The translations under genes and the position numbers were made by a program. This document shows, one piece after another, positions 4,561 through 61,447 of a DNA stretch of 64,000 nt (position 1 is the stretch's first letter; each line of letters starts with the position of its first letter). The notes under the pieces were generated by a model, which was not told where the DNA came from, searched no databases, and saw only the letters and a program-made list of their open reading frames with translations. This DNA comes from Giardia intestinalis (taxonomy: Eukaryota), in the NCBI GenBank assembly GCA_000002435.2, contig CM018792.1, one strand, 5' to 3'.

Positions 4561-5113
4561 GCAGTTATGGATCCTAGCTCTGCTGCAGAAGGTGCCTTAT
4601 GAGACGCAGCACAGCTACACCAAGCGGTATCGGGGCTGAACACTCCTTGGGACGGGCTCCTGGCGCATCTGAGAGACGCTCGTTGCTGTGCACTGCCTCT
4701 TGGGCTTTGAATGCACGTTGTGCAGAGCTGCAGGGGTCGCCCTTGCAGTTGTCGGTGGACCGTTGATGGGATCATTGAAAGCTCTGGACCGCTACTGGGC
4801 CGTGTTGTCCCAGTGCACGTGTGGCAGCTTTGGTTCGCACTGGATGGTCCGCAGAGATTGCAACGGAGCCACGAGGTGCACTAATATGACATACACATTG
4901 AGACAACCGCAGTTCTATTCGGCTCAATCCACCTCCTTCTGGCCCTGTGCCGAGATTGCAGATTGCAGAGTAGTGTTCGCGATAGACCCGGTGAGTGTTG
5001 ATTCCATCAGCGCCTGTGGTCAACGTGTGCCAGAAGGATCAATCAACTGCATCAATCAACGCGGATTGACTGATGTACCGCGAGTATGTTCCTACCAATC
5101 TATCAATCGGGCA

Positions 5114-7324: not shown

Positions 7325-7338
7325 CTTAGGTAGTGAAT
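7325..7338 (+). promoter_or_regulatory. Conserved VSP 3' motif/polyadenylation signal (CTTAGGTAGTGAAT; AGTGAAT = AGTRAAY at 7332..7338)
   Basis: Immediately 3' of the TGA; fits the Giardia AGTRAAY polyA signal and the extended VSP 3' motif ACTYAGRTAGTRAAY (recalled from literature). Repeated at 9158-9171, 10991-11004, 12890-12903, 14699-14712, 63830-63843, and as AGTAAAT at 16544-16550. Confidence 0.75.
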
Positions 7339-9157: not shown

Positions 9158-9220
9158 CTTGGGTAGTGAATGCTGTACAGTGGGTGATAATGGGTGATAG
9201 AAGGTGATAGAGGGTGATAG

Positions 9221-10990: not shown

Positions 10991-11059
10991 CTTGGGTAGT
11001 GAATGCTGTACAGTGGGTGATAATGGGTGATAGAAGGTGATAGAGGGTGATAATGGAGT

Positions 11060-12889: not shown

Positions 12890-12901
12890 CTTAGGTAGTG
12901 A

Positions 12902-14698
12902 ATGCTGTACAGTGATAGTGATAGTGATAGTGCTATGTGGTGTGGGGGTGATAGTGGTGGTGTGGGACTTTTCTTCATGGGCGGGTGCTACAAGACAGAG
13001 AGTCAGCCCGGCAGTGACATATGCACAGCAGCCAGTAATGGAGTATGCACTACTTGTAAGGCAGATAACGGCCTGTTCAAGAACCCAGTTACACCTCAGA
13101 AGCCTGGTAGTGAGTGCATCCTGTGCTCTGATACGACAGATAGAAACGGGGTCATGGGAGTCGCTGGATGCTCAGAATGCTCCCACACGGGCACTAGCGG
13201 ACCGGCCACGTGTACAGAGTGTCAAGCAGGGTTCGTTACGAAGGACAGTGCATGTGTGAAGTGCGGAGACGGCTGCTCTGCTTGCTCAGCTGATACTCCG
13301 ACTCAGTGTACCGCCTGCGTTGAGGGGAAGTACTTGAAGGGTGGTAACACTTGTGTAGATGCTGGTGGATGTGACAATGGTAACTATGCGGACAAGAAGA
13401 CCTGGACCTGTAAGGCCTGCAGTGAGATACAAGGATGCACCGCGTGTGCATACGACGACGCCACGGGAAAGCCGAAGTGCACCGACTGCGGTAGTAAGAC
13501 GGTCAGAGACGAGCTGGATGGGACAACGACCTGTGTTGATGAGGCCGAGTGCAAAGTGGGCAAGACGCACTTCTACGACGCCTCGAAGTGCGTGCAGTGC
13601 GGCGACAATGGTAAGGGCGGAGTCCAGAACTGCAAGCTGTGCACCGCAAAAGGCACCTGCGAGGCTTGTGTCGACGGGTATAAAGTCAACGGAAACGCCT
13701 GCGAGGCCTGCACAGGAAACTGCGCAGAGTGCGGAACAGCGGGTCAAATCAACACATGTACAAGATGCATGCCGGGGTACTTCCTTAAGGATGGCCCGCC
13801 TAAGACATGCGTTCTCTGTGATGACGAGACAAGTGGGATTCCAGGCTGTGCCGAGTGCACAGGCGGCGTGGGGTCCCTCAAATGCACTGAATGTAAGCCC
13901 AACTACAGACCCAGCGGAGAACCTAGCGACCTCACATGTACAAAGACCTGCGAGGATGAGACGGCGTGTGGGGGTACCTCTGGCGCTTGTGATGCCACAG
14001 TGATCGATGCTAATGGAAAGGAGCTTCATTACTGTTCATACTGTGGAGAGAGTGGTAAGTATCCTATCGATGGGAAGTGTGTTGATAATGCTCAAAGTAA
14101 TACTTGTAACAACCATGTATGTACATCATGTGCTCAAGGGTACTTCTTGTATATGGGAGGTTGTTACAAGGTTGATACAGTACCTGGCAACTATATGTGC
14201 AAGGCATCAAGTAAGGAGGGGATATGCACAGAGGCAGCCAACAATAGGTACTTCGTAGTCCCTGGGGCACAGACCACTGATCAGTCTGTACTAGCATGTG
14301 GTAACCCATTAGGCACACTAGTAGGCACTCAAGGTACCGCTAAGGCATACGTGGGGGTGGATGGCTGCTCACAGTGCACAGCCCCAGCAGGTCTGTCTGA
14401 GGGTGGCATGACCCCCGCTGTCTGTACCTCCTGTGACAATAGTAAGAAGCCCAACAAGGATGGCAGCGGGTGTGTGCTGTGCTCTGACACCAACTGCAAG
14501 AGCTGTGTGATGGACGGTGTGTGTGGGGAGTGCAACAGTGGCTTCAGTCTAGACAATGGTAAGTGTGTGTCCTCTGGCGCCAACAGGAGCGGGCTCAGCA
14601 CGGGCGCCATCGCGGGCATCTCCGTCGCCGTGGTCGTCGTCGTGGGGGGCCTCGTGGGCTTCCTCTGCTGGTGGTTCGTGTGCAGGGGGAAGGCGTGA
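12902..14698 (+). CDS. VSP-family 5'-truncated cassette (598 aa), a mosaic: 5' region equals unit 7337-9157, middle equals unit 11060-12889, 3' region equals units 9221-10990 and 14762-16531
   Basis: Its first about 80 aa and its junction are identical to unit 2. The block CEDETACGGTSGACDATVIDANGKELHYCSYCGESGKYPIDGKCVDNAQSN is shared with unit 4. The C-terminal about 130 aa are shared with units 3 and 6. CRGKA tail. Confidence 0.75.
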   Translation: MLYSDSDSDSAMWCGGDSGGVGLFFMGGCYKTESQPGSDICTAASNGVCTTCKADNGLFKNPVTPQKPGSECILCSDTTDRNGVMGVAGCSECSHTGTSGPATCTECQAGFVTKDSACVKCGDGCSACSADTPTQCTACVEGKYLKGGNTCVDAGGCDNGNYADKKTWTCKACSEIQGCTACAYDDATGKPKCTDCGSKTVRDELDGTTTCVDEAECKVGKTHFYDASKCVQCGDNGKGGVQNCKLCTAKGTCEACVDGYKVNGNACEACTGNCAECGTAGQINTCTRCMPGYFLKDGPPKTCVLCDDETSGIPGCAECTGGVGSLKCTECKPNYRPSGEPSDLTCTKTCEDETACGGTSGACDATVIDANGKELHYCSYCGESGKYPIDGKCVDNAQSNTCNNHVCTSCAQGYFLYMGGCYKVDTVPGNYMCKASSKEGICTEAANNRYFVVPGAQTTDQSVLACGNPLGTLVGTQGTAKAYVGVDGCSQCTAPAGLSEGGMTPAVCTSCDNSKKPNKDGSGCVLCSDTNCKSCVMDGVCGECNSGFSLDNGKCVSSGANRSGLSTGAIAGISVAVVVVVGGLVGFLCWWFVCRGKA

Positions 14699-14761
14699 CT
14701 TGGGTAGTGAATGCTGTACAGTGGGTGATAATGGGTGATAGAAGGTGATAGAGGGTGATAG

Positions 14762-16531
14762 TGGAGTGAGATATGCACACAGGCTAGTGATGGACTGTGC
14801 ACTGCTTGTAAGGCAGCTAACCAGTACATATTCCAGAACAAGGCTACGACAGTGACCCCTGGTGGGGAGTGCATACTGTGCCATGATGCCACGGGAGCGA
14901 ATGAGAACAAGGGAGTGGCTAATTGCCTCAAGTGCACGGCACCAGCTAATAGTCCAGGGGCTGCCACGTGTACTGAGTGCATGTCTGGCTTCTCAGGAGA
15001 CTCGTGTGCTACTCAATGCGGAGGAGACTGTGCCGCCTGTGATAAGAGTAACCAAAATCAGTGCACCTCTTGTAAGACTGGGAAGTACCTGAAAGAGAAT
15101 CAATGTGTGGAAAAAAGTGCATGTAACAACAATCACTACCCCGATGACACTAGCATGACCTGCGTCGCCTGTAGCACCATACAAGATTGCACAGCATGCA
15201 CAATGGACCAGTCCACGGGGAAGCCAAAGTGCACTAACTGCGGTGCCAGTAAGATCCCCAGGACGACTCTCGACGGAACCTCGACCTGCGTGACAAAAGG
15301 GTATGATCAGTGTCAAGGCACAGATAAGGAGCTGTTCATGAAGGAGGACCAATCGGCGTGCTTATTATGCGGAGACAATACTGAGGATACATCTGAGTCC
15401 AATAAAAACCAGGGAACTCCTAATTGCAAGACCTGTACCAAGACAGCATCCACTAAACCGGTCTGTGAGACGTGCAAGGATGGCTTCTTCTTTAATACTG
15501 GTGATAAGACATGTACAAACAAGTGCGATGCCACCTGCAAGACGTGCTCTGCTGCTACAGATGCTAACCGATGCTTAACTTGTATGCCCGGATACTTCCC
15601 CATCGATAGTACAGATCAACAAGGGAAGAAGTGCGTCCCATGCGATAGTGTGGACGACAAGGGTCGCGAAGGGTGCAGTGTCTGCTCTAACAATGGTGGA
15701 TTCAAGTGTACTGAATGTAAGGTGAACTATAAGAAGCAGTCCAATGGAGATGCAGGGGATGACTATACATGTGTGAAGACTTGTGAAGACCCCACGGCTT
15801 GTGGTGGGACCTCTGGCGCCTGCGATGCTATAGTAATCGACAATGATGGAGTAGAGCATCATTACTGTTCTTATTGTGGAAATCAAGGAGATGTACCAAT
15901 CAATGGTATATGCACCAGCTCACTTGCAAGTAATACCTGCGCCGATGGTGTCTGCAAGTCTTGTGCTCAAGGGTACTTTATGTATATGGGAGGGTGCTAT
16001 GATGTGTCGAAGGCTCCTGGTAGTCACATGTGCAAGAAAGCAGATAACAATGGGATATGCACAGAGGCGGCAAGTAATAGGTACTTCGTAGTCCCTGGGG
16101 CACAGACCACTGATCAGTCTGTATTAGCCTGTGGCAACCCCCTAGGCACACTAGTAGGCACTCAAGGTACCGCTAAGGCATACGTGGGGGTGGATGGCTG
16201 CTCACAGTGCACAGCCCCAGCAGGTCTGTCTGAGGGTGGCATGACCCCCGCTGTCTGTACCTCCTGTGACAATAGTAAGAAGCCCAACAAGGATGGCAGC
16301 GGGTGTGTGCTGTGCTCTGACACCAACTGCAAGAGCTGTGTGATGGACGGTGTGTGTGGGGAGTGCAACAGTGGCTTCAGTCTAGACAATGGTAAGTGTG
16401 TGTCCTCTGGCGCCAACAGGAGCGGGCTCAGCACGGGCGCCATCGCGGGGATCTCCGTGGCTGTCATCGCTGTCGTGGGGGGCCTCGTGGGCTTCCTCTG
16501 CTGGTGGTTCGTGTGTAGAGGGAAGGCGTAG
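14762..16531 (+). CDS. VSP-family 5'-truncated cassette, near-identical duplicate of 9221..10990 (track ORF 14852..16531 encodes the identical 559-aa product); terminal unit of the array
   Basis: ORF-track proteins for 9311..10990 and 14852..16531 are identical. Ends CRGKA + TAG, then AGTAAAT polyA signal (16544..16550). No further junction follows. Confidence 0.75.
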   Translation, partial: WSEICTQASDGLCTACKAANQYIFQNKATTVTPGGECILCHDATGANENKGVANCLKCTAPANSPGAATCTECMSGFSGDSCATQCGGDCAACDKSNQNQCTSCKTGKYLKENQCVEKSACNNNHYPDDTSMTCVACSTIQDCTACTMDQSTGKPKCTNCGASKIPRTTLDGTSTCVTKGYDQCQGTDKELFMKEDQSACLLCGDNTEDTSESNKNQGTPNCKTCTKTASTKPVCETCKDGFFFNTGDKTCTNKCDATCKTCSAATDANRCLTCMPGYFPIDSTDQQGKKCVPCDSVDDKGREGCSVCSNNGGFKCTECKVNYKKQSNGDAGDDYTCVKTCEDPTACGGTSGACDAIVIDNDGVEHHYCSYCGNQGDVPINGICTSSLASNTCADGVCKSCAQGYFMYMGGCYDVSKAPGSHMCKKADNNGICTEAASNRYFVVPGAQTTDQSVLACGNPLGTLVGTQGTAKAYVGVDGCSQCTAPAGLSEGGMTPAVCTSCDNSKKPNKDGSGCVLCSDTNCKSCVMDGVCGECNSGFSLDNGKCVSSGANRSGLSTGAIAGISVAVIAVVGGLVGFLCWWFVCRGKA

Positions 16532-20177: not shown

Positions 20178-20379
20178 TGGCATCTCCATGTTAACTATCG
20201 ATCGGGCATCCGAGAAGTAACAGTCTGCATATTAATATTTTTCCAGTATTTTTGATTGTAAATCAATCTTATCGTTATGATTAAAGATTGTACTCTTTTA
20301 ATCGGTAAATCAACTTGTCCTTTTACTTTGTGGACGTTGCAAGCTAGTCTTCGTCGTGGCCATAAATAAAAAAGGGTCC

Positions 20380-22359
20380 ATGCCAGGCTGCATTTTATGC
20401 CACAAAGAGGCAGAATCATGTTGTACCTTGTGTTTCTCTCCCCTATGTGAAGATCACCTCTTACCCTTGTCTCTACATAAGCAGCAATGCTCAGCTATCC
20501 TTCTCAAACGATTTACTGAAGCTGCTGCTCAAAGGGAGGTCAGTGACAATGCATCTCCAATGTATCACGATCTTCATAAATTATATATAGAGTGGGAGCA
20601 GGCTGCCACCAGGGTCATGCAGGCCGATGATTGCCTCACTAAGATAGACGCGCTGCTCCAGACACTTTGTCTTAGTAACACCCTATTTGGAAGTGGTCAT
20701 CCTGTGCCACAGGACGCCCTTGTTAGGTTACTTTCTCTTCTATCAGAAAGATATGTAGATGCCAAGGTGGTCATTGAAGTGCTTGACAACTTGGCCGAGT
20801 ATCCGTTGAAAATGACGTCGAAAATAAGGTACCTATACAACCTTTTCATTCTATCGTCCGGGTGTGTGCCCTCTAATTTAAAGGTCATAGGCAGTGATAG
20901 ATACCTGACGGTCAAGCGGAACATAAATCAAGCGATTTTTCTTCTCCTAAATGGTGAAGGGTGTTCAGCTCAGGCTTTGCTAGGAGACTTATTTCACCGT
21001 GACCGTTCACCAATTGAAACAGTGGTTTTGCGTTATGCATGGAGCTGCACTCAAACCAACAACAAAAACCGGCAAACCACTCTTTATTCGGTAACCGAAA
21101 AAGATCTGGAACAATCTTTTCCTAGGCAGTGTGAGGATGGCCATGTCACTATCTTTTTCATGCAACTGCTGCTTTACTTTACATATTATAATAGCCCATC
21201 CAACTACTCTAGTAAAACAGTGCATGACAAGATGGTGCTTGCCAAGTCTATGTTACGAGATACGCTGTATATGCTGCAAGGTGTTTGCACACTGAGCACT
21301 AGCATGTTGGCTGCTCTCTACATTCGAATTCTGGCTGTGCTTGTGGAAACATCATCGCTAAATAGTCTCATATATGAGTACGGCAGAGAAGCCAGCAGAA
21401 TCTTCGCGCAGTTTCTGCTACCTCCGAAGGAGTCGTCCGCACCAGACCAAACGGTAGAAGAGCCTGCTGGTTCCTCCGAGCGAGAATTAGTCATAGATGA
21501 TCTGGATATGACACCGCCTGTACGCAGAAAGATACATCACAGGCTGTGCTTCTTCCCCAGCGACTCCCTTCCGCCCATGCTAATCACAACAGTACCAAAT
21601 AACCCCTGTCTACAGGCAGAGCTAGCCTTCAATGTGACTAGGACTATGAAGTCGATACGTGCCTCAATCTCTAAACGGCAGAAAGAACGGTCGCTAGCAC
21701 GACGCGTAGCCTCGTCCTTTGTCGACCAGCGCATTTTGCCTCTCCATCACAAGAGCCCAAAGGTGAAAGCAATCTCCCAGCATCAAAGTGCACTCATACC
21801 TGCCAGCAATTTACAAAAAGGAGGAGTGGGTTGTGAAATGCTTGGTGGAAGCTCATCCAGGGGAAGAGCGGAGGCAAACCTAAGAGTACACGAAATCCTT
21901 GCAGACATGAGGCAGGCATACAGAGAGCGTACTAAGGCTTGCAACCTATCGGAAAAAATGACACTTGTATCTAACGATATAGACTTGGACTTCTTAGAAC
22001 ATAAATTGTACAGCTCTAGAATTGAAAGCTTTATCAAAAGCCCCGGAGACCAATACATTGCAACTCTTACTAAGGAAGTACTCTCCCCGTACTCTAAGCA
22101 ATCTCTTTGTAAGTTTTCAAAAGAGCTGGCTCGTAGTAGAGAGACAAGAAACCCTGATAGACTGATAAGTAGAAATCTTTGCTCTGTGGATATATCCTCT
22201 CCAGAATCAAAAGAGGCTTTCTCTGAACCACTTAAAACAATGAAGGGCAGTACATGGATTGCAGAGGTAGACGGGTTATTGGCAGCAACAACTGATGTTA
22301 TCAATGAGCTCAATGCTTACGAGATTGACGAGTTGAAGTCCGGTTGCGCACAGGTTTAG
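20380..22359 (+). CDS. Hypothetical protein (660 aa). Track start 20356 is a GTG; the first ATG is 20380, preceded by gccataaataaaaaagggtccATG
   Basis: Long ORF with an AT-rich initiator; no recognisable domain. Overlaps the convergent 2009-aa gene by 50 nt. Confidence 0.5.
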   Translation: MPGCILCHKEAESCCTLCFSPLCEDHLLPLSLHKQQCSAILLKRFTEAAAQREVSDNASPMYHDLHKLYIEWEQAATRVMQADDCLTKIDALLQTLCLSNTLFGSGHPVPQDALVRLLSLLSERYVDAKVVIEVLDNLAEYPLKMTSKIRYLYNLFILSSGCVPSNLKVIGSDRYLTVKRNINQAIFLLLNGEGCSAQALLGDLFHRDRSPIETVVLRYAWSCTQTNNKNRQTTLYSVTEKDLEQSFPRQCEDGHVTIFFMQLLLYFTYYNSPSNYSSKTVHDKMVLAKSMLRDTLYMLQGVCTLSTSMLAALYIRILAVLVETSSLNSLIYEYGREASRIFAQFLLPPKESSAPDQTVEEPAGSSERELVIDDLDMTPPVRRKIHHRLCFFPSDSLPPMLITTVPNNPCLQAELAFNVTRTMKSIRASISKRQKERSLARRVASSFVDQRILPLHHKSPKVKAISQHQSALIPASNLQKGGVGCEMLGGSSSRGRAEANLRVHEILADMRQAYRERTKACNLSEKMTLVSNDIDLDFLEHKLYSSRIESFIKSPGDQYIATLTKEVLSPYSKQSLCKFSKELARSRETRNPDRLISRNLCSVDISSPESKEAFSEPLKTMKGSTWIAEVDGLLAATTDVINELNAYEIDELKSGCAQV

Positions 22360-25300
22360 GGGAAGAGCTATCATCACTGGGCTCCGAGTCGCTGTTACTA
22401 ACGGTGCTGCTAGAAACTTCCTCAAGGTCTTGGCTTGTTTCAGCACTCTTTTCATCCTGATCATCACCTTGTGAACTTTCAAAGCGAACAGACTCACAAA
22501 TGGCTAGATACTCATTATCTGTCAAGGCGGCGATGCCACGCACTAACAGTAGCAAATTACCAATCAGCTTTTCACAGAACTCTGCACATATTGCTATTGT
22601 TTGATCGCCGTTAAAGGAGTCCCAGTTTCCAGCGATGATACGGATGTCATTAATTAGTGATCTAAAACATGTATAGTAGCCAGTGGCAATGCGGTGCATA
22701 ATTAAGTTAAACCATAATGGATGAGCCACTACCCCAGCATATCTCTTTATTCTACCACATGGGTTGGCAAACGTTTCAAGTAAAATGTCCCGATAGGCAG
22801 AGGTGGTTAAAGTAATGTTTATGGCCTCAACAAGTACCAAGAATAGCCTCATTCGTGAAAGTATGGACATGGGATTAAATATTCCATCAAATGTGAGAGC
22901 ATGCTCCTGTCTTGACCTCGAAGATTTGCGCAGTCCAGTATGGGTTCCGGACATGTTGCCAGGTTTGATTCCAAATGGTCTAACGGTCAAGCTTCTGATT
23001 ATTTGAGCAAAGGTAATACTCTCATCGTTATTGGTGCTGCATGATGAGTCAGCTGTACTTACTGTAGTGCTCTGTGGTGATACAAACGAAAAGTCCAAGT
23101 TTGTGTGTGTAATTTCATTAGCTTCTAACGCATAGGGGACTAACTCGGTTACCAGGGATGAGTACAAAGGCGACACCGGTGATTGCGAAGAGGAAGATTC
23201 AATCCCAGAGGCATTAAGTGATAGGGAGAATAGACTGGCGGGTATATATGTCAAAATATTTGTATCGCGAATATATAGATCCTCCAAAATACTGAAGATA
23301 CGTGCACACGTCTCTGCTGAAAACGTAGCAGACTGTGCATCTATGTTATCCCATACAGATGCTTGTTTGACGATTTCTTCTTGGGCTTGGTCTCTTGGAA
23401 CTTGCATGTCTTCAGTAAAGTAGTAAAGGCCTGAGGCAAAGGTATTGTCTCTGTAAAGTTGGTAGCACACACTTACCAAATAAGACTTTGATTCTTCCAA
23501 CTCTAGTTTGCTCAATTGTCGCTTTGTCAGATTATCAGATGGTGCATCAGGGAAGAATGTGTCCAGCACGTGCTCTCTGAACAGTGCTTCTGCTGAGTAA
23601 ATTTTGAGTGTGTCAGTGCGGGTTGTAGCTTTCAGGAATAGGTGATATAATAGACCAAATGCGTGAGGAATATAATGGTCGCCCCATCGCTTTGGAGATC
23701 CATTTCTTACAGCAGTTTGAACCATGAGAAGCCGGGGCGTGGATCGGGGAGAGTAAAAATAAGGTGTCTTCTTGATTGTGTCGTTAAAGAAGGCCGACAT
23801 GTGTTGAACTGAAGAGAGGACAAGCTTCCTGATGTATCCATGCTTGCGCTGGAAGCGAGTATCCTCAGATTCGTAGCTTGAGTCAGATTCTGTGTCTGAA
23901 GCAGAACTTGAGCTTGAGTTTTGCTTGGTCTTGTTACTCGTTTTCGACTCAGACGCCTTCTTAGAGGCAGTATTGGCGCGTAGGACAACATTCCCCCTGC
24001 TTGTTAAGGCAAAGAGCTGTGGATGAAGCACGTGCTCCGGAGCAGGGGCAAAAGGGACCGTTCTATGATAAGCTTCGAGCGGAAATGAGTCTGATATAGT
24101 CTTTATTTTCCTAATGTCTTGAATGGCAGCGGGAGGAAGTACAGATAGCTTTATTGGATAACTGAGACATTCCGCAAGAAGGGTGTCCTCCAGAAGATCA
24201 CAATATTCTAGGCCATGATGGCAATAGAAGTCACTGGTGAAGGTCAATGATGGAAACGATGCCTTAAAGCATTTGGCTACCTGTTCCGATGCACAAGGCC
24301 CCTCCCGAATGTATTTTATCCATTGTCCCAGGACCTTCGATAGCGTCCTCAAGTGGTAGGCGCCAGACCAGTAAGGCAATATCGGAAACTCAGGTATCAG
24401 GTTCCGTGGCTCCAGTAGAAGTGAGTGCGACAGAGGAAGGATTACAAGGTCGTGACTTTTAGTTATCTGCAGATTGTACGTATTTTTTGTGCGCTCATTT
24501 GCTAAAAGCTTGTCCAGAAGTTCATAATCTGGGGTTATCAAGGGAGTTATTTGATCTATGCTGGTTACTGGTTTAATGAGAATGGTAAGTAACGTAAGAG
24601 GCATTCCCACAAAAGGGGGTCTACCCTTGTCTATCTGCCAATACTGAGGGTAAATGTCCTTGATGATTGCAAGGTATGGCTTATTATTGGGGTTTTCGGG
24701 GGCGTCTCCATAAAACCCTGTTTCTGGAGGCGGCCCTATAAGTCGATCTAAGACTGTAATGGTGCTACCAGTTATTCTTTTATCGAAGAAGGAGTCGATG
24801 AATTGGATGGAGTATCGATAATGAACAGGCAACACCAAAATGGCGTCTCCCACCTGGGGTATTGCGTATGAGTTTGCTTTACCTGCAACCAGCGGGGTTG
24901 ATGATGCAAAATCCTTCATGAACTCTATATTTCTCTTAATAAGTGTCTTGTATTGTAAACTGAGAAAGACCTTCGTATACTTTACCAGAGCTGTTGCACT
25001 TGTTACCTTTTCAATATATCTCTTTAAAGGTGGTTCCGACTTGGATTGTTCAACGGTTTCTTTTTTCGTATTCTTTTCCAAAACGAACTCTTCTGTTGTC
25101 TCTATCTCTTCACTATACGCTACGCTGTCAGATCCGCTGCTAGAATAGACAAATGAGTCGGTATCCTGCATGTCTTTTATTCGCTTCTTTTTTCTTCTGC
25201 CAGGGTTTTCTAATGACTCCTCGGAGTCGTTGTCCTTAGTAGATCTTTCATAAGCACCGGATTCGCTAGCTGATGACGAAATCGATGCAGAAGATTCCTC

Positions 25301-28300
25301 CTCCTGTTCCTGCACGTCAGATTCAGACTCAAAGGCGAGCTCATCTGCTCCCAAACTAGAGATGCTGAGGAGAGACCCTTCTGATTCTCCGGGTCCCGAT
25401 TTATTAATGAGGTGTCGCCGTGGATTCCTGATGCGGCGCGGGACAGAAGGAACAACATGACTCGAGATTGCTTCCTCAATACGTGCGATACAATTATCCA
25501 TATCGTCGAAAACATCAGTGTTATCATCCTGTATTTCCTTGACTTGTTTGGTCTGTAATTCTATATTCGAAGAAGCAACGAAGCCAGAGACATCTGTTGC
25601 AAAGAGGGGTTCAGATGTATTGAGCAGGTCCGAGATCAGCTCTATCTTCTCTCGTTGCTTGACATCCTTAAGCGTTGTTACATTCTCTAAAAGCAGAAAC
25701 TTTGATGAAGCACGATCAAGCAAAAATTCAGCCGCTGGTTGACAAAGAATCATAGCATTTAAAGAAGCGCACTTGGGGGTGATGATCCCCAGGTCTAAAT
25801 AGGATAGTTCATTGATTGATCTCATCGAAATAATGCTCTCATAAAATCCATGATAACAATGCTTCTGAGCCTTCTCATAATAACGAGCTAACTCTTCCAG
25901 GTAAGAGGGTAATGACTGCCTTTGCCGGCTCTCTTCCAGCGATGCAGGAATGAAGTAAACAGTACCATAAAATGAGCAGATTGCTAGTGGGTTTTCATAA
26001 TTAGCTAGATATCTCACCGTGTCATATACAGACAGTCCTGTAAACATACTCTTGGGTGCTTTAATGCTGAGCTTGAGCATGTGGTCGGTAGTAAGAGTTC
26101 TTAGATCAAGGTTGGGCAGACGGGTGATCAAGGCATTGTGTAGAGTGTACCGGAAAATGGTATCTATCCTTCCGATGCAATAGACAGAAACCACAAAGTG
26201 ACCCTCCGCCTGCTTGGCCTCAAGTTTAGAAATCAATTGCTTAAGTTGGTTTGGCGAGTCGAATAGTAGACAGCTATCATCAGAAAAATGACACTCCACA
26301 GCTAACTCCTCTGACAGAATTTTTGATATGCTAGTGCTTAACTCTTCGTGAAACATCTTCATTCCTGTGACGTTCAGGATCGCCTTGGCCCCTTTGATCA
26401 TTAATGGTTGAGTTGTAGGTGAAGATAGTTGCTCTGTAGGCAGCAAAGATGATGCCGTGAGTGCAGAGTTAACAGACTCATCTGGATCTGTCCCATATCG
26501 AGCGCTAAAGATCCCTGGTAGCTCAAAGAACAGGAACTGCTCTTGAGGAGAAATATAGCTCGGTGGAAATGTTGCCCCAATACCAATGGACATTATCTGG
26601 CCAGTGACATTCGAGACGAATAGCTCTCCGGTCTCTGAACTAAGGCAGATATCGCTAAAGACCAAACCCTCATTGTCTTGAGAAGAACATGGCATGCGGA
26701 TGTTCCAGACATTCTGGGTGCCATCGGGAGAGAGAAAGAAAAGGAAGAGATCCAAAGGAGATATGGTTAAGGGCAGTTCCTCGCCAGTTCGTTCCAGAAA
26801 GCGCAGACCAGTATTTTCCAGGTTCATGGTATCACTGACAACCCAAACATATGGAAGAGATGAGGATGAAGTGGCAGGGACGGCGCAGTTGAAGTAGGGA
26901 TGATTGGATAAGTCAAGACAGCAGATTGAGATACCGAAACCACAACCACACAGTATAACACGCGAAGTAGGTGATACCTTACGCTCAATAAAGGACTCGT
27001 CTGCCCCTAGGGGAAACTCATTTGCTCTATCGTGAGCCTCATCAGTAACCATTTGCTGTTCTAGCAAAGCTAGAGAAGGTGCGGCCGAAATATACGTATA
27101 CAGTAAAGCTAGTTCAAAGAACACGAGATAATTCTTACTAAACTTAGTGTTAGAGCACTTAACTTGTGCTGCAAGATAACGACTGTCGGGACTGATAAAG
27201 AACGATGTACAAGACCAGTAACTGGTGTTTGCCTCGCAGTATGATACGACTGACACAGAAATAAGCGTAAGACACCATGGCTTAAGATCCCGAACCATTG
27301 GAAATGGAAGAATTCGATATCCGCTGGTGTCAGACCCTGAAGACGCTAAGTTGGCGTCTTCAAAAGAGCCAGTATCTAGTTTTGCAAAAGAACCTCTATA
27401 CTCAGATGTGCTATAGGCTAACAAGCAAGACATGTTATGAAAGCTTACGACGAGGAGAAGGTCGTTTGGAGCGTACTGAATGTACTTAGGAAAAATGAGA
27501 ACGGTGCTGAGACCCCATTCTGTCTGTGGAGCTTCAATACAAAAGTGCATTAGATGCATCCCGCACACTTCTCCCCTGATTAGTGTCTGCCCATCGATAG
27601 AAATGTACTTCCATGGAAGCAAAGAGAAAGATCCGTTATCAGTGTATACCTCTTTAATATTGCTCGTCCTGAGAATGGTTATAAATGGCAGCCCATTTGC
27701 TGTCCAGGCGATGGCTAATTCAGTGGATGACTCATTAAGACAAGCCCAAACAATCCGGTTGTTCTCGGCATCAGTTGAGGAGGCTGTGAGCTCCATTATG
27801 ATGGCTGCATCACCTGTCGCGATGCATACTAGAAAGATGATTGCAGAAGATTGTACAATAGCAAAGGGGCTATTCTTAATGGTTAGAAGCTTCTCCAGCT
27901 GGTTTACGTAAAGGCTACTGCTCTTCTTTCCCACTGGCTGGGTTGTTCGTAGATAGCTTGAAGAAATATACGTGCAACTGCAGTAAAGTTCAGGTCCGTC
28001 CGCGATATCCAACGGAATGTCCCACACTATTACCACGTCCATCCACATGGCAACGACATAGCGCTCCTGGCTGATGGCCAGGTCGATTATCCGACTATGG
28101 TGTTCTACTGGAGAAATTAAATAACCGACTAAACGGACCACAGGGCCTTGAACATACCAAAGTTTTACTGCCCCGTCGTCAGATGCACTCACAAGATAGT
28201 GCTTTCTAAGAAGCTGAAGAGGAGTAAAGCCAACCCCATGGATCTGATGCCCATGGACAATAAAATTTCTTACAATCACGCCACTAAAGTCATGAAAAGC

Positions 28301-28339
28301 ATCTAGGTCTTGACAAGAAAGACCCCTGCGCTGTAGCAT
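22310..28339 (-). CDS. Large hypothetical protein (2009 aa) with N-terminal WD40-like repeat(s) and an acidic/Ser-rich C-terminus
   Basis: HGHQIHGVGFTPLQ...LVSASDDGAVKLWYVQG WD repeat near the N-terminus. Uninterrupted 6-kb ORF. Acidic SDSE/DSEPSDD tracts. Confidence 0.6.
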   Translation of the reverse strand: MLQRRGLSCQDLDAFHDFSGVIVRNFIVHGHQIHGVGFTPLQLLRKHYLVSASDDGAVKLWYVQGPVVRLVGYLISPVEHHSRIIDLAISQERYVVAMWMDVVIVWDIPLDIADGPELYCSCTYISSSYLRTTQPVGKKSSSLYVNQLEKLLTIKNSPFAIVQSSAIIFLVCIATGDAAIIMELTASSTDAENNRIVWACLNESSTELAIAWTANGLPFITILRTSNIKEVYTDNGSFSLLPWKYISIDGQTLIRGEVCGMHLMHFCIEAPQTEWGLSTVLIFPKYIQYAPNDLLLVVSFHNMSCLLAYSTSEYRGSFAKLDTGSFEDANLASSGSDTSGYRILPFPMVRDLKPWCLTLISVSVVSYCEANTSYWSCTSFFISPDSRYLAAQVKCSNTKFSKNYLVFFELALLYTYISAAPSLALLEQQMVTDEAHDRANEFPLGADESFIERKVSPTSRVILCGCGFGISICCLDLSNHPYFNCAVPATSSSSLPYVWVVSDTMNLENTGLRFLERTGEELPLTISPLDLFLFFLSPDGTQNVWNIRMPCSSQDNEGLVFSDICLSSETGELFVSNVTGQIMSIGIGATFPPSYISPQEQFLFFELPGIFSARYGTDPDESVNSALTASSLLPTEQLSSPTTQPLMIKGAKAILNVTGMKMFHEELSTSISKILSEELAVECHFSDDSCLLFDSPNQLKQLISKLEAKQAEGHFVVSVYCIGRIDTIFRYTLHNALITRLPNLDLRTLTTDHMLKLSIKAPKSMFTGLSVYDTVRYLANYENPLAICSFYGTVYFIPASLEESRQRQSLPSYLEELARYYEKAQKHCYHGFYESIISMRSINELSYLDLGIITPKCASLNAMILCQPAAEFLLDRASSKFLLLENVTTLKDVKQREKIELISDLLNTSEPLFATDVSGFVASSNIELQTKQVKEIQDDNTDVFDDMDNCIARIEEAISSHVVPSVPRRIRNPRRHLINKSGPGESEGSLLSISSLGADELAFESESDVQEQEEESSASISSSASESGAYERSTKDNDSEESLENPGRRKKKRIKDMQDTDSFVYSSSGSDSVAYSEEIETTEEFVLEKNTKKETVEQSKSEPPLKRYIEKVTSATALVKYTKVFLSLQYKTLIKRNIEFMKDFASSTPLVAGKANSYAIPQVGDAILVLPVHYRYSIQFIDSFFDKRITGSTITVLDRLIGPPPETGFYGDAPENPNNKPYLAIIKDIYPQYWQIDKGRPPFVGMPLTLLTILIKPVTSIDQITPLITPDYELLDKLLANERTKNTYNLQITKSHDLVILPLSHSLLLEPRNLIPEFPILPYWSGAYHLRTLSKVLGQWIKYIREGPCASEQVAKCFKASFPSLTFTSDFYCHHGLEYCDLLEDTLLAECLSYPIKLSVLPPAAIQDIRKIKTISDSFPLEAYHRTVPFAPAPEHVLHPQLFALTSRGNVVLRANTASKKASESKTSNKTKQNSSSSSASDTESDSSYESEDTRFQRKHGYIRKLVLSSVQHMSAFFNDTIKKTPYFYSPRSTPRLLMVQTAVRNGSPKRWGDHYIPHAFGLLYHLFLKATTRTDTLKIYSAEALFREHVLDTFFPDAPSDNLTKRQLSKLELEESKSYLVSVCYQLYRDNTFASGLYYFTEDMQVPRDQAQEEIVKQASVWDNIDAQSATFSAETCARIFSILEDLYIRDTNILTYIPASLFSLSLNASGIESSSSQSPVSPLYSSLVTELVPYALEANEITHTNLDFSFVSPQSTTVSTADSSCSTNNDESITFAQIIRSLTVRPFGIKPGNMSGTHTGLRKSSRSRQEHALTFDGIFNPMSILSRMRLFLVLVEAINITLTTSAYRDILLETFANPCGRIKRYAGVVAHPLWFNLIMHRIATGYYTCFRSLINDIRIIAGNWDSFNGDQTIAICAEFCEKLIGNLLLLVRGIAALTDNEYLAICESVRFESSQGDDQDEKSAETSQDLEEVSSSTVSNSDSEPSDDSSSPKPVRNRTSTRQSRKH

Positions 28340-28612: not shown

Positions 28613-31006
28613 CTAACCCTGGAACCACGTCTCCATGCGTTTACCTAGTAAAGTACTTAGCGAGAGATGTGGATAGCTGTCCCACCTGGGGACCTTCCAC
28701 GAGTGCAAAAGGTGAACAATGAAGTTTTCTCTTACAGAGGAATCTAGGGGGTGTAGATGTGGGGAAAAGTTTGCTTTGGCGCTACTAATAGAACTGTCCC
28801 TACTATTACGTGAGCTCCTATCGTCTGGGCCAGTTATGAAGATACTACATTGCCGCTTGTTGCCGCTGAGGATCGTCTGCAGCTTGCTCTCCCACATGCT
28901 GATTTCGCTTGACGACCACAGTAGTCCTACAAAGAAGCATACATATGTACGACTAAGGGCAAAACATATGGATACAGCGTCGTCTATGCACACCAAGGCG
29001 GCTAGCTCGCCGCTTTGGAGCCTGTGTATGCTGTCTAAAGAGGCATTCATATTTCTTTTCTCACTAATGCTTTCTACTTTCAATCCGTTGTTGCGTAGAG
29101 CATCTGCTAATAAGTCTCCTGTCTCTTTTCCATGTACGATAACTATGAACTGTATTGAATTAAGAGAATAGAATCCCGCAAGCGTATCTGCTAGAAGCAT
29201 CACAGCTACTTCGGAGTCACGCACCTCAATAAGCATGTCATTGTCTGTGCTTCTGTTAGTCCGCGTGTCCCTTTCACCTTCTAAATATAGGATAAAGCGT
29301 TGTTTAGGCCCAACGTACCTTTCAGACAATCTGCTGAGGCAACATATACCAAATATATACGCTAATTCATCTTGCATGCTTACTCCTGATGCTGTCGTAA
29401 TAACTTTTCCGCTTCTTAATTCTCGCTTTTTCAGCTCACAATAACGTGCAAGAAACTCCATCCTTCCGAGAGATAAGCCTAGTATGATTAGTTGTGGATG
29501 TAGGACTTTCAAAAGGCTCACACAGGCAATAGAGATGCATGTTATTACACGGGAGCAAGTAGATAAGATTAGAGAGAGCTCTTTGGTACGCTTTGAAGAC
29601 ATATCTTTGTAATCTTGGGCGTCCGATAATATAAACGTTGACGATTGAGTGTGAATTAGGCCATTTTTATAGAGAGTCAGAAAGTTTTGTGCTGTAAGGA
29701 CGATAATCATCCGTCTTCTACAAACAGTAACGCCTTCGAAGCATGTCTGAACTGCGTGCGTGTATACTTGTGAAAAGGCACCACGAGATGTGATGTCCTC
29801 ATACCCTAGAGCGTAGATAGCAGAGGCACTATCTGGGTTGATGTTATACTCACATGGCAGCTCATAAACCCGTCTGAGCCTCGTTCGCTTCATCACTTTG
29901 ACTTCAGATCCTGAAGACCGCTTTAGAGCCACCTTTTTCAGACTATTTGTCTTTGCCTCATGCGCGTCCTTCTCTTTCAACCACTGCGACATACAACTAC
30001 GCCGCGCTGGCTCGGTATTGTACCACAGATACACCTGTTCTTTCCAGTATGAAATAGAGTTTGTATGCACGATTATGAACAGCGGGAAGCTGTCCTTGTA
30101 CTGGTATGTGCTAAGAAGAGCCTGCGCAGCAACACCCATCTCTGGAGGATCTGCCAGGATGCACTTCCCTCCACGTAAAAGGTAAAACTCTATTGCTTCC
30201 CTCTGCCATGGCCGCAGACTGTACAAGTTTGGAGTGGATGGATCAATACTATACTTATAACTCTTGTGCTCTTCTCGTTTTATTCTATTGTTGGTTATAA
30301 TTACAGGGAGAGACCAGTTTAGTAAGGCCAGCGGAATGCATACATTAGCTCTAACGAGCACTCCGTTTAATCGTTCCGCGGTAAAATTGCGAGTCTTTTT
30401 CTCTATATCTTTAATGTGCTGGTTGTACTCTAATACCGAAACAGTGTATGCTGTGCGAGAACGGGGTACTTTGTTTGAAAGAGTAGGGCAGTCTATAGAT
30501 GCTGTTTGGATTCGCTTTGCGGTGGAGCAACTGTCAATGGCGGTTTGTATAGATTGTGGCACGGAAGGTGTGCTTGATAGACTTTGAACAAATACCACGT
30601 CGATCCTAACAACAGTAACTTCAATTAGTTGACACGTTAGATCTATTATCGCCTTTATTTCTGGTTGTTGCATATGGATTGCTGTCACCTTTCCTTTGCG
30701 GATATCTCTGGATTGGCTTTTGTTGGGAGTACTTTCAGTACCACATAAGGGGCACTTGGTTTGCACAATAATGGAAGTAAATGAAGTGGCAGAAGCTTTC
30801 TTGTCTTCAGGTAGATCCTCTGCTGTGAGTGTTGCTGGTTGAGAAGGTGATACGAGGAATGGACCGGGACTTTTAAGAGGTGGTTCAGTAGCCGCCACAT
30901 TGTCAACGCTGTGCTTACTATCAGTAAGAGCATCTCTTATTGATCGAATAAACGGACATGGACGAAAGGGTTTTGGCTGGGGGATTTGCTCACCTGGAGA
31001 GGACAT
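28613..31006 (-). CDS. Rad54/SNF2-like protein with a degenerate (probably catalytically dead) motif I. Start set at the ATG at complement 31004..31006; the track ORF extends to 31246
   Basis: LRPWQREAIEFYLLRGGKCILADPPEMGVAAQALL aligns to SNF2 motif I LRPhQ.EGV.FL...G.ILADEMGLGKT.Q, but the GKT is replaced by GVAAQ. C-terminal region has a helicase-C-like fold hint (FIVIVHGKETGDLLADALRNNGLKVESI...RLQSGE). The longer track ORF would overlap the divergent gene at 31155. Confidence 0.45.
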   Translation of the reverse strand: MSSPGEQIPQPKPFRPCPFIRSIRDALTDSKHSVDNVAATEPPLKSPGPFLVSPSQPATLTAEDLPEDKKASATSFTSIIVQTKCPLCGTESTPNKSQSRDIRKGKVTAIHMQQPEIKAIIDLTCQLIEVTVVRIDVVFVQSLSSTPSVPQSIQTAIDSCSTAKRIQTASIDCPTLSNKVPRSRTAYTVSVLEYNQHIKDIEKKTRNFTAERLNGVLVRANVCIPLALLNWSLPVIITNNRIKREEHKSYKYSIDPSTPNLYSLRPWQREAIEFYLLRGGKCILADPPEMGVAAQALLSTYQYKDSFPLFIIVHTNSISYWKEQVYLWYNTEPARRSCMSQWLKEKDAHEAKTNSLKKVALKRSSGSEVKVMKRTRLRRVYELPCEYNINPDSASAIYALGYEDITSRGAFSQVYTHAVQTCFEGVTVCRRRMIIVLTAQNFLTLYKNGLIHTQSSTFILSDAQDYKDMSSKRTKELSLILSTCSRVITCISIACVSLLKVLHPQLIILGLSLGRMEFLARYCELKKRELRSGKVITTASGVSMQDELAYIFGICCLSRLSERYVGPKQRFILYLEGERDTRTNRSTDNDMLIEVRDSEVAVMLLADTLAGFYSLNSIQFIVIVHGKETGDLLADALRNNGLKVESISEKRNMNASLDSIHRLQSGELAALVCIDDAVSICFALSRTYVCFFVGLLWSSSEISMWESKLQTILSGNKRQCSIFITGPDDRSSRNSRDSSISSAKANFSPHLHPLDSSVRENFIVHLLHSWKVPRWDSYPHLSLSTLLGKRMETWFQG

Positions 31007-31154
31007 GTATAGGGACAGAATGAAAGTACAGACAGAGTAGGGTAAATTCTGAAGTAGTAAACCTTGATAGCTTGGTGCACAGAATCGTGAGTGTTGCTGT
31101 GTCTTCTGAATGTTAACGCAATGCTCTCTCCAAATAATTGAAATCGAGGCCACG

Positions 31155-32936
31155 ATGACTCTGACTCCCCTGCAGTCTGCGCGCATCATCCTCGCAGACG
31201 ACGTTGGATTTGTGCGCGTTATGTACCCTATGCTTCCAAATCTCAATGGGGGACAGGCTCATCGAATAAATTCGGTCTCCAGATACTCTGTCCCCATAAC
31301 AGCAATGTGCTACGGTGAGACAGAAGAGACAGTCATTATGGCATACAAAGACGGGAAAGTTGAAATATACCATATACCTCTGAAATTCACCGCGTATACC
31401 AATGGTACATACAAATTTGACGAGCCGAAGCTTATAACGTATACAAATATCTCTGTTGTTGTTGATGTTGCAGAGCACCGTGTCTACCGAGAAACAGTGG
31501 ATGATAAGGATCAGGCGCTTAGACAGCGCATTAGTCCACGGGAAATTCGTGCCATAGCATTTGCTAAGCCTAACAATTTGGTGATGATAACGTCCAATTC
31601 GAAAGTGCACAGATTCATTTTAGAAAACAATGATAACGGAAAGCCATCAATCACCTTTATGTCTTCTTTCCAAATGAGTCTAAACATTCAGGCACCAAGG
31701 CCCCTTCCAGCTCCGACGTTGGGCGATTTTGTGCAGGAAGAGCCGCCTCCAGAACTGCGCAACGCTTCTTCTGAGGCATATATCCTTATACCTATAGGGC
31801 AGAAAATATATGCTGCATGCGGTGGATGGGGTCATGCCCCACGAATTTACGACTCTGCTTCTGGGAAGGTGGTCTATGTGCCCCGCGACCCTCCTCCCTC
31901 CTTTCCAGCTCGTGCCGCTCTTCGATTCATAGCTACTTGTTTCTGCTATGATGAGAAGGATGGCATCTTTGTTGTTGGTGACATGGACGGATGGATACAC
32001 TGTTATAAGACAGGTCTCTGGGGGCCTGCAGTGCCCATTGCAGAACGACCGGAAAATATCAGTGGCTGGAACGAGCCGCAAGAGCTTAAGAAGCGCAAAG
32101 GACGGCCAATCCAGAGTGTCTCAGAGCTGGTTCCACACAACGTGGTCGACGACGTACACAAGCAGCCCTATCAGCTTTCCGAGGGGGTAATAAGTAGTGC
32201 AGCATTGTGGTATAACCGCAATTTTGAGAGGAAGGTATGTGCAGTTAGTATTGTGACAGTACGTTTGGACGACGGTATTGGGAAGTATCTTTGTGCTTCA
32301 AATGGCGAGGGAACATGCGACCTCCTTTCTTTAGAGTCAGGGAAGCTTTGCAGGCGCTTTAACAAGCACGGAGGTGCAGTGAAGTGTTTCGCTAGTCTCC
32401 GACTTAATGAAGTATTAGCAGCTCATATGAACAAAAGCTTTTCTAGGAAGATACAAAGACTCAATGACGACCAATCAGCTGATAGCGACTCTACTGACTC
32501 CACAAGCAATAGTCTATCTTCGGAGATTTCTGAAGATGATGCCGACCAAAAGTCTGTTGCAGCGGTCGTGCTGGGGAACTCCTCAACAGCTCACAAGGAT
32601 ATGAAGACAACTGACACGCTGATATTCACTGGATGCTTGGACAAGTTCCTACGAGTGTATATACCTGGATCTAGAGAGCCCCTGTGCAGCCATTATGTTG
32701 TCAATAGCCCACTAGTTCTGTTGGCTTCATTTGGTAAGATGCGTTATGAGCGGGCTCTAGAAGAGTCAGGAGATTCACCTGAAGAAGCTACATCCTCAGA
32801 ATCAGAAAGTTTTGACGATGAAACAAAACGGCCTGCGGACCTCCCAGAAGACTCCATTGATAACATAGACCTAAACCTTAATATTACGACGTCCGTTTTG
32901 CAAAAGAAGAACACGCAAAAGGTTATTAAGCGATGA
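31155..32936 (+). CDS. Hypothetical protein (594 aa) with an acidic Ser/Asp-rich C-terminal region
   Basis: ATG at 31155 preceded by ccaaataattgaaatcgaggccacgATG; the track ORF from 31110 has a non-ATG start. No recognisable domain. Confidence 0.5.
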   Translation: MTLTPLQSARIILADDVGFVRVMYPMLPNLNGGQAHRINSVSRYSVPITAMCYGETEETVIMAYKDGKVEIYHIPLKFTAYTNGTYKFDEPKLITYTNISVVVDVAEHRVYRETVDDKDQALRQRISPREIRAIAFAKPNNLVMITSNSKVHRFILENNDNGKPSITFMSSFQMSLNIQAPRPLPAPTLGDFVQEEPPPELRNASSEAYILIPIGQKIYAACGGWGHAPRIYDSASGKVVYVPRDPPPSFPARAALRFIATCFCYDEKDGIFVVGDMDGWIHCYKTGLWGPAVPIAERPENISGWNEPQELKKRKGRPIQSVSELVPHNVVDDVHKQPYQLSEGVISSAALWYNRNFERKVCAVSIVTVRLDDGIGKYLCASNGEGTCDLLSLESGKLCRRFNKHGGAVKCFASLRLNEVLAAHMNKSFSRKIQRLNDDQSADSDSTDSTSNSLSSEISEDDADQKSVAAVVLGNSSTAHKDMKTTDTLIFTGCLDKFLRVYIPGSREPLCSHYVVNSPLVLLASFGKMRYERALEESGDSPEEATSSESESFDDETKRPADLPEDSIDNIDLNLNITTSVLQKKNTQKVIKR

Positions 32937-61374: not shown

Positions 61375-61447
61375 GAGCGGCTGTCTCTCACTGCTCGCGG
61401 CAACACACCAGCCTGACGGAAGAGCAGTGGCACGTGTACTCCGGCTA

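Follow-up and report, generated by a model that had tools for sequence, protein, structure and literature searches.

The 64,000-nucleotide (nt) stretch of Giardia intestinalis contig CM018792.1 analysed here (the window, at its full length) includes a gene on the minus strand whose product, known publicly as a 'putative SNF2 family helicase', is probably a pseudo-ATPase derived from a SMARCAL1-like enzyme and maintained by selection. The comparisons suggest that it is the G. duodenalis-complex orthologue of a diplomonad SMARCAL1-like SNF2 ATPase, that it would have become a pseudo-ATPase since the split from the G. muris lineage, and that it has been kept by purifying selection. An initial annotation made from the DNA letters had described a Rad54/SNF2-like pseudo-ATPase with a destroyed P-loop, and the pseudo-ATPase part of this description agrees with what we find, as the catalytic motifs are replaced and the gene is under purifying selection. 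The SNF2 label is already in the public annotation and the loss of the catalytic site is absent from it; what is new here is the pseudo-enzyme status, the SMARCAL1-like parentage, and a dated pair of live and dead orthologues.

The gene is listed among the open reading frames (ORFs) of the window as follows:

28613..31006, minus strand: complete coding sequence of 797 amino acids (aa) plus stop codon, with an ATG start

The window protein is identical to XP_037901997.1 / KAE8303956.1 from G. intestinalis WB clone C6 (this accession carries the public name given above), the exact protein was found on 69 contigs, and there are orthologues of the same length in other lineages of the G. duodenalis complex. 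Older names for the same or the orthologous gene are 'Putative membrane spanning protein' (an 877-aa model, ESU36840.1) and 'hypothetical protein GL50581_1081' (assemblage B). We rejected the 877-aa model, which begins at a TTG with the ORF extending to 31246, because it overlaps the start of the divergent neighbouring gene at 31110 and because the orthologues P0002, P0004 (C/D-like) and P0240 (the GS protein) start at the homologous ATG. In some older models the extra stretch (31007–31246, minus strand) starts at TTG or an upstream codon, and it is the 797-aa model with the ATG start that the different lineages conserve.

As judged from its sequence, the window protein resembles SNF2 proteins far beyond chance, with the resemblance visible only by profile methods. 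Pfam gave no SNF2 or helicase match for the single window sequence, a phmmer search of the PDB found nothing significant (only SMARCAD1, E = 0.79, residues 261–331), and Pfam run on all five members of the clade returned only Helicase_C, at E = 0.01, in one orthologue. A word-index search recovered four orthologue clusters at 98, 64, 61 and 58% identity (the 64% cluster includes the assemblage B GS protein), and profile A1, built from five G. intestinalis-complex sequences and searched exhaustively against 1.84 billion (1.84e9) representative proteins, identified 234 proteins at E ≤ 1e-3, with E-values down to 4e-15 for canonical SNF2 proteins. The hidden Markov model search suggested as a check by the initial annotation was therefore negative for the single sequence in Pfam and positive for the profile. 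Profile A5, made from the diplomonad clade, matched CHD1L (E = 1.6e-10) and SMARCAD1 (E = 2.5e-10) in the PDB. The C-terminal helicase-C-like block which had been proposed earlier is also borne out, by lobe 2 of DDX19B in the PDB (E = 0.11 with A1 and 6e-7 with A5), by the Helicase_C match in the one orthologue, and by the second lobe of the AlphaFold2 (AF2) model described below, so that with profiles homology is found to both the N-lobe and the Helicase_C lobe of the SNF2 family.

The catalytic motifs were compared column by column with the consensus of 89 more distant SNF2 relatives, and the assignments are unambiguous because the motif flanks align without gaps:

30116..30154, minus strand: ablated motif I (Walker A), ADPPEMGVAAQAL against the consensus ADEMGLGKTxQAL, with G289E, K292V and T293A
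29606..29638, minus strand: ablated motif II (Walker B) with motif IIa kept, TFILSDAQDYK against IxDESHxLK, with D461S, E462D, S463A and H464Q
29516..29551, minus strand: ablated motif III, RVITCISIACVS against RxxLLSGTPALS
28943..28999, minus strand: degenerate motif V, ALVCIDDAVSICFALSRTY against VAxLSITAAxxGLTLTAAS
28865..28918, minus strand: ablated motif VI, WSSSEISMWESKLQTILS against WxPGxLxQAEDRxHRIGQ

The motif I-like segment quoted in the initial annotation is present at residues 262–298 of the ORF, and the loss of the P-loop lysine and threonine that it reported is real, the Walker A core having changed from GLGKT to EMGVA. It was also right that the protein has no intact DEAH, having overlooked the degenerate motif II listed above, but the damage is wider than the two losses it described, with motifs II, III, V and VI ablated as well. 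In motif III, TCISIACVS stands against LLSGTPALS (T493I and P494A; the SATP of G. muris becomes ISIA), and the core of motif V reads CIDDAVSICFALSRT against LSITAAxxGLTLTAA. Motif VI has Q704M and has lost both arginine fingers (R708K and R711T), so that MWESKLQTILS aligns with QAEDRxHRIGQ and the QAEGRIRR of G. muris becomes MWESKLQT. Nowhere in the window protein is there a GK[ST], an [AG]x4GK[ST] or a DExH/D string, nor a canonical GxGKT of the kind that would have counted against a destroyed P-loop. Taking intact motifs I, II, III and VI together as the mark of an active ATPase, the window protein does not have them. The losses are common to all four G. duodenalis-complex lineages (the lysine of motif I is replaced by valine or isoleucine), and K292 and T/S293 of Walker A are kept in 93/93 aligned sequences from outside the complex (four diplomonad and 89 distant SNF2 proteins). 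We considered P0076 as a second 'dead' relative and rejected it because its gene model, which has an intact GVGKT, is misaligned or fragmentary; it is also the sole apparent exception in motif II.

The lysine and threonine of Walker A and the aspartate and glutamate of Walker B coordinate Mg-ATP, the arginines of motif VI sense the γ-phosphate, and motif III in superfamily 2 (SF2) enzymes is generally the part that links the hydrolysis of ATP to movement along nucleic acid. From the replacement of these residues we infer that the window protein is unable to hydrolyse ATP and probably unable to bind it, and would therefore not translocate on DNA or use ATP to anneal strands or regress forks. 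What defines an SNF2 motor is DNA translocation powered by ATP. With its catalytic residues replaced, the window protein would be a structural and evolutionary member of the SNF2 family without being an enzyme of that family. The 'scaffold' role suggested in the initial annotation can likewise only be inferred.

The G. muris orthologue, itself annotated as a 'putative SNF2 family helicase' (P0005, contig CM016928.1), shares about 27% identity with the window protein and is intact, with ADAPGLGKTVQAL, FIVDESHEYKD, CSATP and QAEGRIRR. All motifs are kept by P0005, by P0154 from a muris-like Giardia (80% identical to the G. muris protein), and by the more distant P0006 and P0010, and both P0005 and P0006 are recognised by Pfam as having SNF2-rel_dom and Helicase_C. 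G. muris P0005 has the same neighbours as the window gene (WD-like, TPR, kinesin and PI3/4-kinase genes), and the same domain order, lobe 1 insertion and N-terminal PF[IV]; it differs from the window protein in having kept GLGKT, DESH, SATP and QAEGRIRR, and in a dN/dS ratio (omega) about half that of the dead clade, as we refer to the G. duodenalis-complex lineages. Because the syntenic orthologues from G. muris, the muris-like Giardia and a further diplomonad keep the motifs, the sequences place the loss on the stem branch leading to the G. duodenalis complex, once this had separated from the G. muris lineage.

All four orthologue clusters of the window protein lie in the same gene neighbourhood, in which the divergent gene is:

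31110..32936, plus strand: divergent WD40-like neighbour of 608 aa, with a weak ANAPC4_WD40 match

This gene is homologous to the gene in the same position beside P0154 (E = 1e-72) and beside P0006 (E = 1e-92), and the head-to-head WD-like/SNF2 pair is found in the G. duodenalis complex and at the muris-like and P0006 loci (L006 and L005), and G. muris (L007) has a gene of similar size (510 aa) in the same head-to-head position. At the G. muris locus on CM016928.1 the same genes are found together (kinesin, TPR protein, WD-like gene, SNF2 gene and PI3/4-kinase), and the G. muris gene is a positional orthologue and not a paralogue. We note that the gap between the WD-like and SNF2 genes is only about 100 nt, and one bidirectional promoter may therefore serve both genes, which could also be linked in function. 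Directly downstream of the SNF2 gene is a 2009-aa ORF (22310–28339, minus strand) with long Ser/Asp/Glu-rich stretches and no Pfam domain, which has the same position on other G. duodenalis-complex contigs (1941–2037 aa); the place after the SNF2 gene of G. muris is taken by a PROPPIN gene and the PI3/4-kinase, and the region has therefore been rearranged between the species.

A catalogue of the SF2 helicases of Giardia WB published in 2012 has seven 'Swi2/Snf2' ORFs, all said to have eight motifs, with best-match labels of ARIP4-like, ISWI, BRG1, INO80, XPB, CSB and CHD (PMC3566956). There is no SMARCAL1-like protein and no ORF of the length of the window gene among these seven (PMC3566956), and according to this catalogue and our search of the representative library, no intact member of the SMARCAL1-like family is known in G. 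intestinalis.

The gene is under purifying selection and is not decaying. Between dead lineages we obtained approximate Nei-Gojobori dN/dS values of 0.11–0.20 at dS 1.0–2.7 (pN 0.17–0.24 against pS 0.55–0.73, as the proportions of nonsynonymous and synonymous differences), with the lowest values, 0.06–0.10, over residues 256–335 which include the motif I region and are the most constrained part of the protein. In each of four lineages lying at dS > 1 from one another, all 797 codons of the ORF can be read through without a frameshift or stop. The live pair (G. muris and the muris-like Giardia) has a dN/dS of 0.09 at dS 1.3 compared with 0.14–0.20 for the dead pairs set against it, and a dN of 0.12 compared with 0.23 for the assemblage A/B pair at comparable dS; constraint has been relaxed about twofold, yet is strong and far from neutral. 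The p-distance of the ATPase core to every outgroup is 0.73–0.81 for the dead clade and 0.62–0.74 for G. muris, and as the N-domain shows no such asymmetry, the acceleration is specific to the motor. Within the dead clade, the former motifs I, Ia, II/IIa and VI and a conserved 'RYC' block are 67–85% invariant compared with 48% for the whole core (former motifs I, II and VI alone, 67–75%), and motifs III, IV and V are only 8–37% invariant, with motif III at 8% and drifting freely. The conservation of former motifs I, II and VI above the level of the core suggests that the former nucleotide cleft has been re-fixed in a new form as the coupling motifs drift, and that it now serves a different purpose, structural or in binding.

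The parent of the window protein appears from these comparisons to have been a SMARCAL1-like DNA remodeller, and neither Rad54 nor a nucleosome remodeller. We assign it in this way because a Pfam scan of the 59 top non-diplomonad proteins among the 234 A1 matches found SNF2-rel_dom in 59/59, Helicase_C in 57/59 and HARP in 17/59, and because SMARCAL1-type proteins score 50–71 bits with A1, in a library 10,000 times larger than the PDB, while no Rad54, ISWI, CHD, INO80 or SWI/SNF chain in the PDB is matched by this profile at E < 10. The best non-diplomonad matches, P0008 (E = 4e-15), P0009 (E = 1.7e-12), P0012 and P0014, all have HARP, SNF2 and Helicase_C domains. In an alignment of 97 sequences (A3), the window protein and the SMARCAL1-type proteins share the Q-like LxPxQxE, ILAD, the tryptophan of motif Ia, the K..KRTK of motif IIa, and the RYC block followed by SG.S...EL. 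Both the RYC block and, in the relatives, a motif III of the SGTPALSRP type persist throughout the 97 sequences, with R521, Y522 and C523 conserved in at least 90% of these and kept in the window protein; to our knowledge, other SNF2 subfamilies have neither feature.

The SNF2-family two-lobe ATPase fold proposed in the initial annotation is supported by the profile searches, the AF2 model and Foldseek. With the 97-sequence alignment, AF2 gave a model with a predicted local distance difference test score (pLDDT) of 76.8 and a predicted template modelling score (pTM) of 0.78, consisting of a disordered N-terminus (residues 1–105), a folded N-domain, two RecA-like lobes with predicted SNF2-type helical protrusions, and a basic helix (residues 332–363). 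The top Foldseek matches of this model are Ino80, BAF, Chd1, CSB and Rad54 (1z3i), at E of about 1e-11. The parts of the protein outside the ablated motifs are:

30692..31006, minus strand: N-terminal region, residues 1–105, predicted disordered (pLDDT < 50) and fast-evolving (omega 0.27–0.45)
30941..30973, minus strand: short conserved motif KPFRPCPFIRS (core [CS]PF[IV]), residues 12–22, from the alignment and translation
30242..30676, minus strand: folded beta-rich N-domain, residues 111–255, predicted as beta-beta-alpha-beta-beta-long alpha-beta (AF2 pLDDT 66–89; omega 0.11–0.17)
29282..30241, minus strand: RecA-like lobe 1 of the SNF2 core, residues 256–575
30041..30091, minus strand: motif Ia region, SFPLFIIVHTNSISYWK, with a conserved proline changed to histidine and 82% invariant in the clade
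29717..30019, minus strand: lobe 1 insertion specific to diplomonads, lying between motifs Ia and II, residues 330–430, from the alignment
29363..29455, minus strand: retained RYC block FLARYCELKK...SGVSMQDEL, 85% invariant in the clade
28817..29215, minus strand: RecA-like lobe 2, helicase-C-like, residues 598–730, from homology and AF2
28613..28816, minus strand: C-terminal tail, residues 731–797, with the conserved end RENF..LLHSWKVPRW.SYP, assigned with low to moderate confidence

The lobe 1 insertion of about 100 residues includes the long and highly basic predicted helix (KEKDAHEAKTNSLKKVALKRSSGSEVKVMKRTRLRR), which in the G. duodenalis complex exceeds its G. muris counterpart by about 22 residues and, going by the model, could be a nuclear localisation signal or an extra DNA-binding element. 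The KPFRPCPFIRS motif is kept in assemblages A and B and in two other lineages (G. muris has RPSPFVIRS and P0006 has KHSPFIKK), and occupies the position of the N-terminal helical motif of the SMARCAL1 orthologues, which binds RPA32. This helical motif (e.g. LTEDQK..ME.KR..A), as seen in P0008, P0009, P0012 and P0014, has no counterpart in the window protein, where the CPFIR motif may be a docking site in its place. The N-domain lies directly upstream of the core in the position of HARP in the SMARCAL1 orthologues, and MAFFT puts their HARP domains over residues 111–255 (hhalign is weak, probability 4.6%, P = 0.009). Pfam found no HARP in the window protein, in the clade members or in the intact diplomonad orthologues, and we do not name the N-domain HARP as this profile-profile comparison is not significant.

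What such a protein might do can be suggested from the parts it has kept. The role we prefer, and put forward tentatively, is that of a protein which binds DNA in a structure-specific way, or serves as an adaptor, at stalled forks or branched DNA without needing ATP. DNA contact would be made by the retained lobe surfaces (motif Ia, motif IIa with YKD..KRTK, and the RYC block). A further functional part may be the N-domain folded where HARP would lie, and the N-terminal CPFIR motif might dock a partner. A fuller version, in which this is the first natural SMARCAL1/SNF2 pseudo-ATPase, with the cleft re-purposed as a conserved binding site and the protein sensing or protecting stalled forks or branched DNA without ATP, is one that we think doubtful.

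Several points weigh against the overall interpretation of a selected, SMARCAL1-derived pseudo-ATPase. The AF2 model is confident only when the alignment is dominated by canonical SNF2 proteins, its pLDDT being 32.7 if just the five clade sequences are used, and the evidence from the fold therefore depends in part on the evidence from homology. The comparison of the N-domain with HARP is not significant by hhalign, and Pfam HARP is missing even in the intact diplomonad orthologues, so that an annealing-helicase or fork-remodelling activity of the ancestor is itself extrapolated from distant SMARCAL1 proteins. dS is saturated in most pairs, which makes omega approximate, though pN is far below pS throughout. 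The functional part of the interpretation is read from residues, and the point that there is no intact paralogue rests on the 2012 catalogue and the representative-library search and not on the whole G. intestinalis genome (a word-index search with the G. muris protein missed even the known G. intestinalis orthologues, and cannot exclude an intact paralogue).

A different role for the same pseudo-ATPase, the main alternative and one which we consider unlikely without dismissing it, is that of a mainly protein-protein regulator (an allosteric partner, a decoy or a dominant-negative-like brake for a further repair or remodelling factor, such as RPA, PCNA or another SNF2 ATPase) that would act through the re-purposed cleft and the CPFIR motif. 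Such a regulator would fit with the conservation of former motifs I, II and VI in their new form and with a short N-terminal motif conserved across the diplomonads in an otherwise disordered and fast-evolving region, and pseudohelicases are known inside complexes (Utp25 in the small subunit processome, and a pseudohelicase-centred complex in Caenorhabditis elegans). However, no partner is known, and motif Ia, motif IIa and the RYC block, which as we understand it are on the DNA-facing side of the SNF2 lobes, are also strongly retained; the regulator and DNA-binder roles are in any case compatible.

It is very improbable that the window protein is still an active ATPase using a non-canonical site with compensating residues elsewhere, in the manner of the relocated lysine of the WNK-type kinases. 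Purifying selection acts across the whole core, K281 is found in a GGKC just upstream of strand beta-1, and D462 and E706 are retained, but motifs I, II, III, V and VI have all been hit (with the glycine of the P-loop changed to glutamate, its lysine to valine or isoleucine, and the arginine fingers gone), the freely drifting motif III is hard to reconcile with activity, and there is no conserved alternative GK[ST] or DExH. The only candidate, a chance SGKT in lobe 2 of the orthologue P0004 (L003:6001–8394, residue 649), was rejected as a relocated P-loop because it lies at a site without homology to the P-loop and the other lineages do not conserve it.

We give still less credence to a decaying relic that has lost its function and is on the way to becoming a pseudogene; a nonsynonymous rate roughly double the one in the live lineage (G. 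muris) for a similar dS, the accelerated ATPase core and the failure of Pfam to recognise the protein could be read in this way, but not the intact 797-codon ORF in four lineages at dS > 1, an omega of 0.1–0.2, the conserved synteny, or the exact protein on 69 contigs.

The Rad54-derived or chromatin-remodeller-derived scaffold of the initial annotation, with a similarly negligible claim, can draw on a motif I flank like that of Rad54 and other SNF2 proteins and on Rad54 1z3i among the fold matches and at 27 bits (E = 8.7e-6) with A5 in the PDB, but SMARCAL1-type proteins score far higher with the same profiles, the RYC block (which, as far as we know, Rad54 does not have) and the SGTPALSRP-type motif III of the relatives mark the SMARCAL1-like subgroup, the 59 sampled A1 matches include no Rad54 proteins that we could see and no chromo, bromo, SANT or other remodeller modules in Pfam, and a Rad54-like gene (ORF 7890, ARIP4-like) is catalogued separately in Giardia (PMC3566956).

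Elsewhere in the window there are Giardia variant-specific surface protein (VSP) genes (PF03302) at 7337–9157 and 61004–63829, as well as kinases, kinesin and ankyrin proteins; the VSP genes mark the window as Giardia. Five VSP-type ORFs (606, 559, 609, 598 and 559 aa) are arranged head-to-tail at 7337–16531 on the plus strand with a period of about 1.8 kb, and because 300-nt blocks are 100% identical between copies (10387–10686 with 15928–16227, and 7206–7505 with 12771–13070), this array indicates a recent segmental duplication of about 5.5 kb. The convergent long ORFs at 20356–22359 (plus strand) and 22310–28339 (minus strand) have a 50-nt 3' overlap (22310–22359), which is typical of the compact Giardia genome. 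Long ORFs also overlap on opposite strands in GC-rich VSP-like sequence, at 4688–7324 (plus strand) and 6068–7744 (minus strand), and at 61004–63829 (plus strand) and both 61102–62961 and 61466–63145 (minus strand); such opposite-strand ORFs are probably compositional artefacts, and a weak KARI_N match in the 941-aa VSP is probably spurious.

Returning to the SMARCAL1-derived pseudo-ATPase, its best-scoring relatives are the SMARCAL1/HARP annealing helicases (including the ZRANB3-type group), which have the same core order through the RYC block to lobe 2, a folded N-domain upstream of the core, and a similar size (600–800 aa). The window protein differs from these in that its ATP-binding and hydrolysis residues are all replaced and Pfam HARP is undetectable, in having a CPFIR-type motif and not the N-terminal helical motif, and in the lobe 1 insertion. 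The annealing, branch-migration and fork-regression activities of SMARCAL1 need ATP, and from its residues the window protein is almost certainly incapable of SMARCAL1-type annealing, branch migration and fork regression. SMARCAL1/HARP is described as an annealing helicase with branch-migration and fork-regression activities (PMC4035279). Rad54 has the generic SNF2 two-lobe core and similar motif I flanks, with a much weaker profile similarity than the SMARCAL1-type proteins. Closer in outcome are Deinococcus radiodurans PriA, a fork-structure-binding SF2 protein with lost helicase motifs (PMC4504706), and the yeast pseudohelicase Utp25 (PMC9539457), in which the SF2 fold is retained and functional despite a lineage-specific or family-wide loss of ATPase motifs; it should be noted, though, that these belong to other SF2 families (PriA and DEAD-box-like) and not to SNF2. 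We found no natural SNF2- or SMARCAL1-type pseudo-ATPase in the searchable literature, and nothing on the window protein in the literature on Giardia and SMARCAL1, annealing helicase or HARP.

The name 'putative SNF2 family helicase' overstates the likely activity of the window protein, and 'membrane spanning protein' and 'hypothetical protein' overlook its family. The case is unusually clean, with one locus occupied by a dead orthologue in G. duodenalis (assemblages A and B and two other lineages) and by a live orthologue in G. muris, and comparing the two would test directly what a SMARCAL1-type fork remodeller can do without ATP. Going by the 2012 SF2 catalogue, the window protein may be the only member of the fork-remodeller subgroup in G. 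intestinalis. If this is true, ATP-driven fork regression by the SMARCAL1 route would be absent from this human parasite, which would bear on how Giardia responds to replication stress, including that caused by DNA-damaging drugs.

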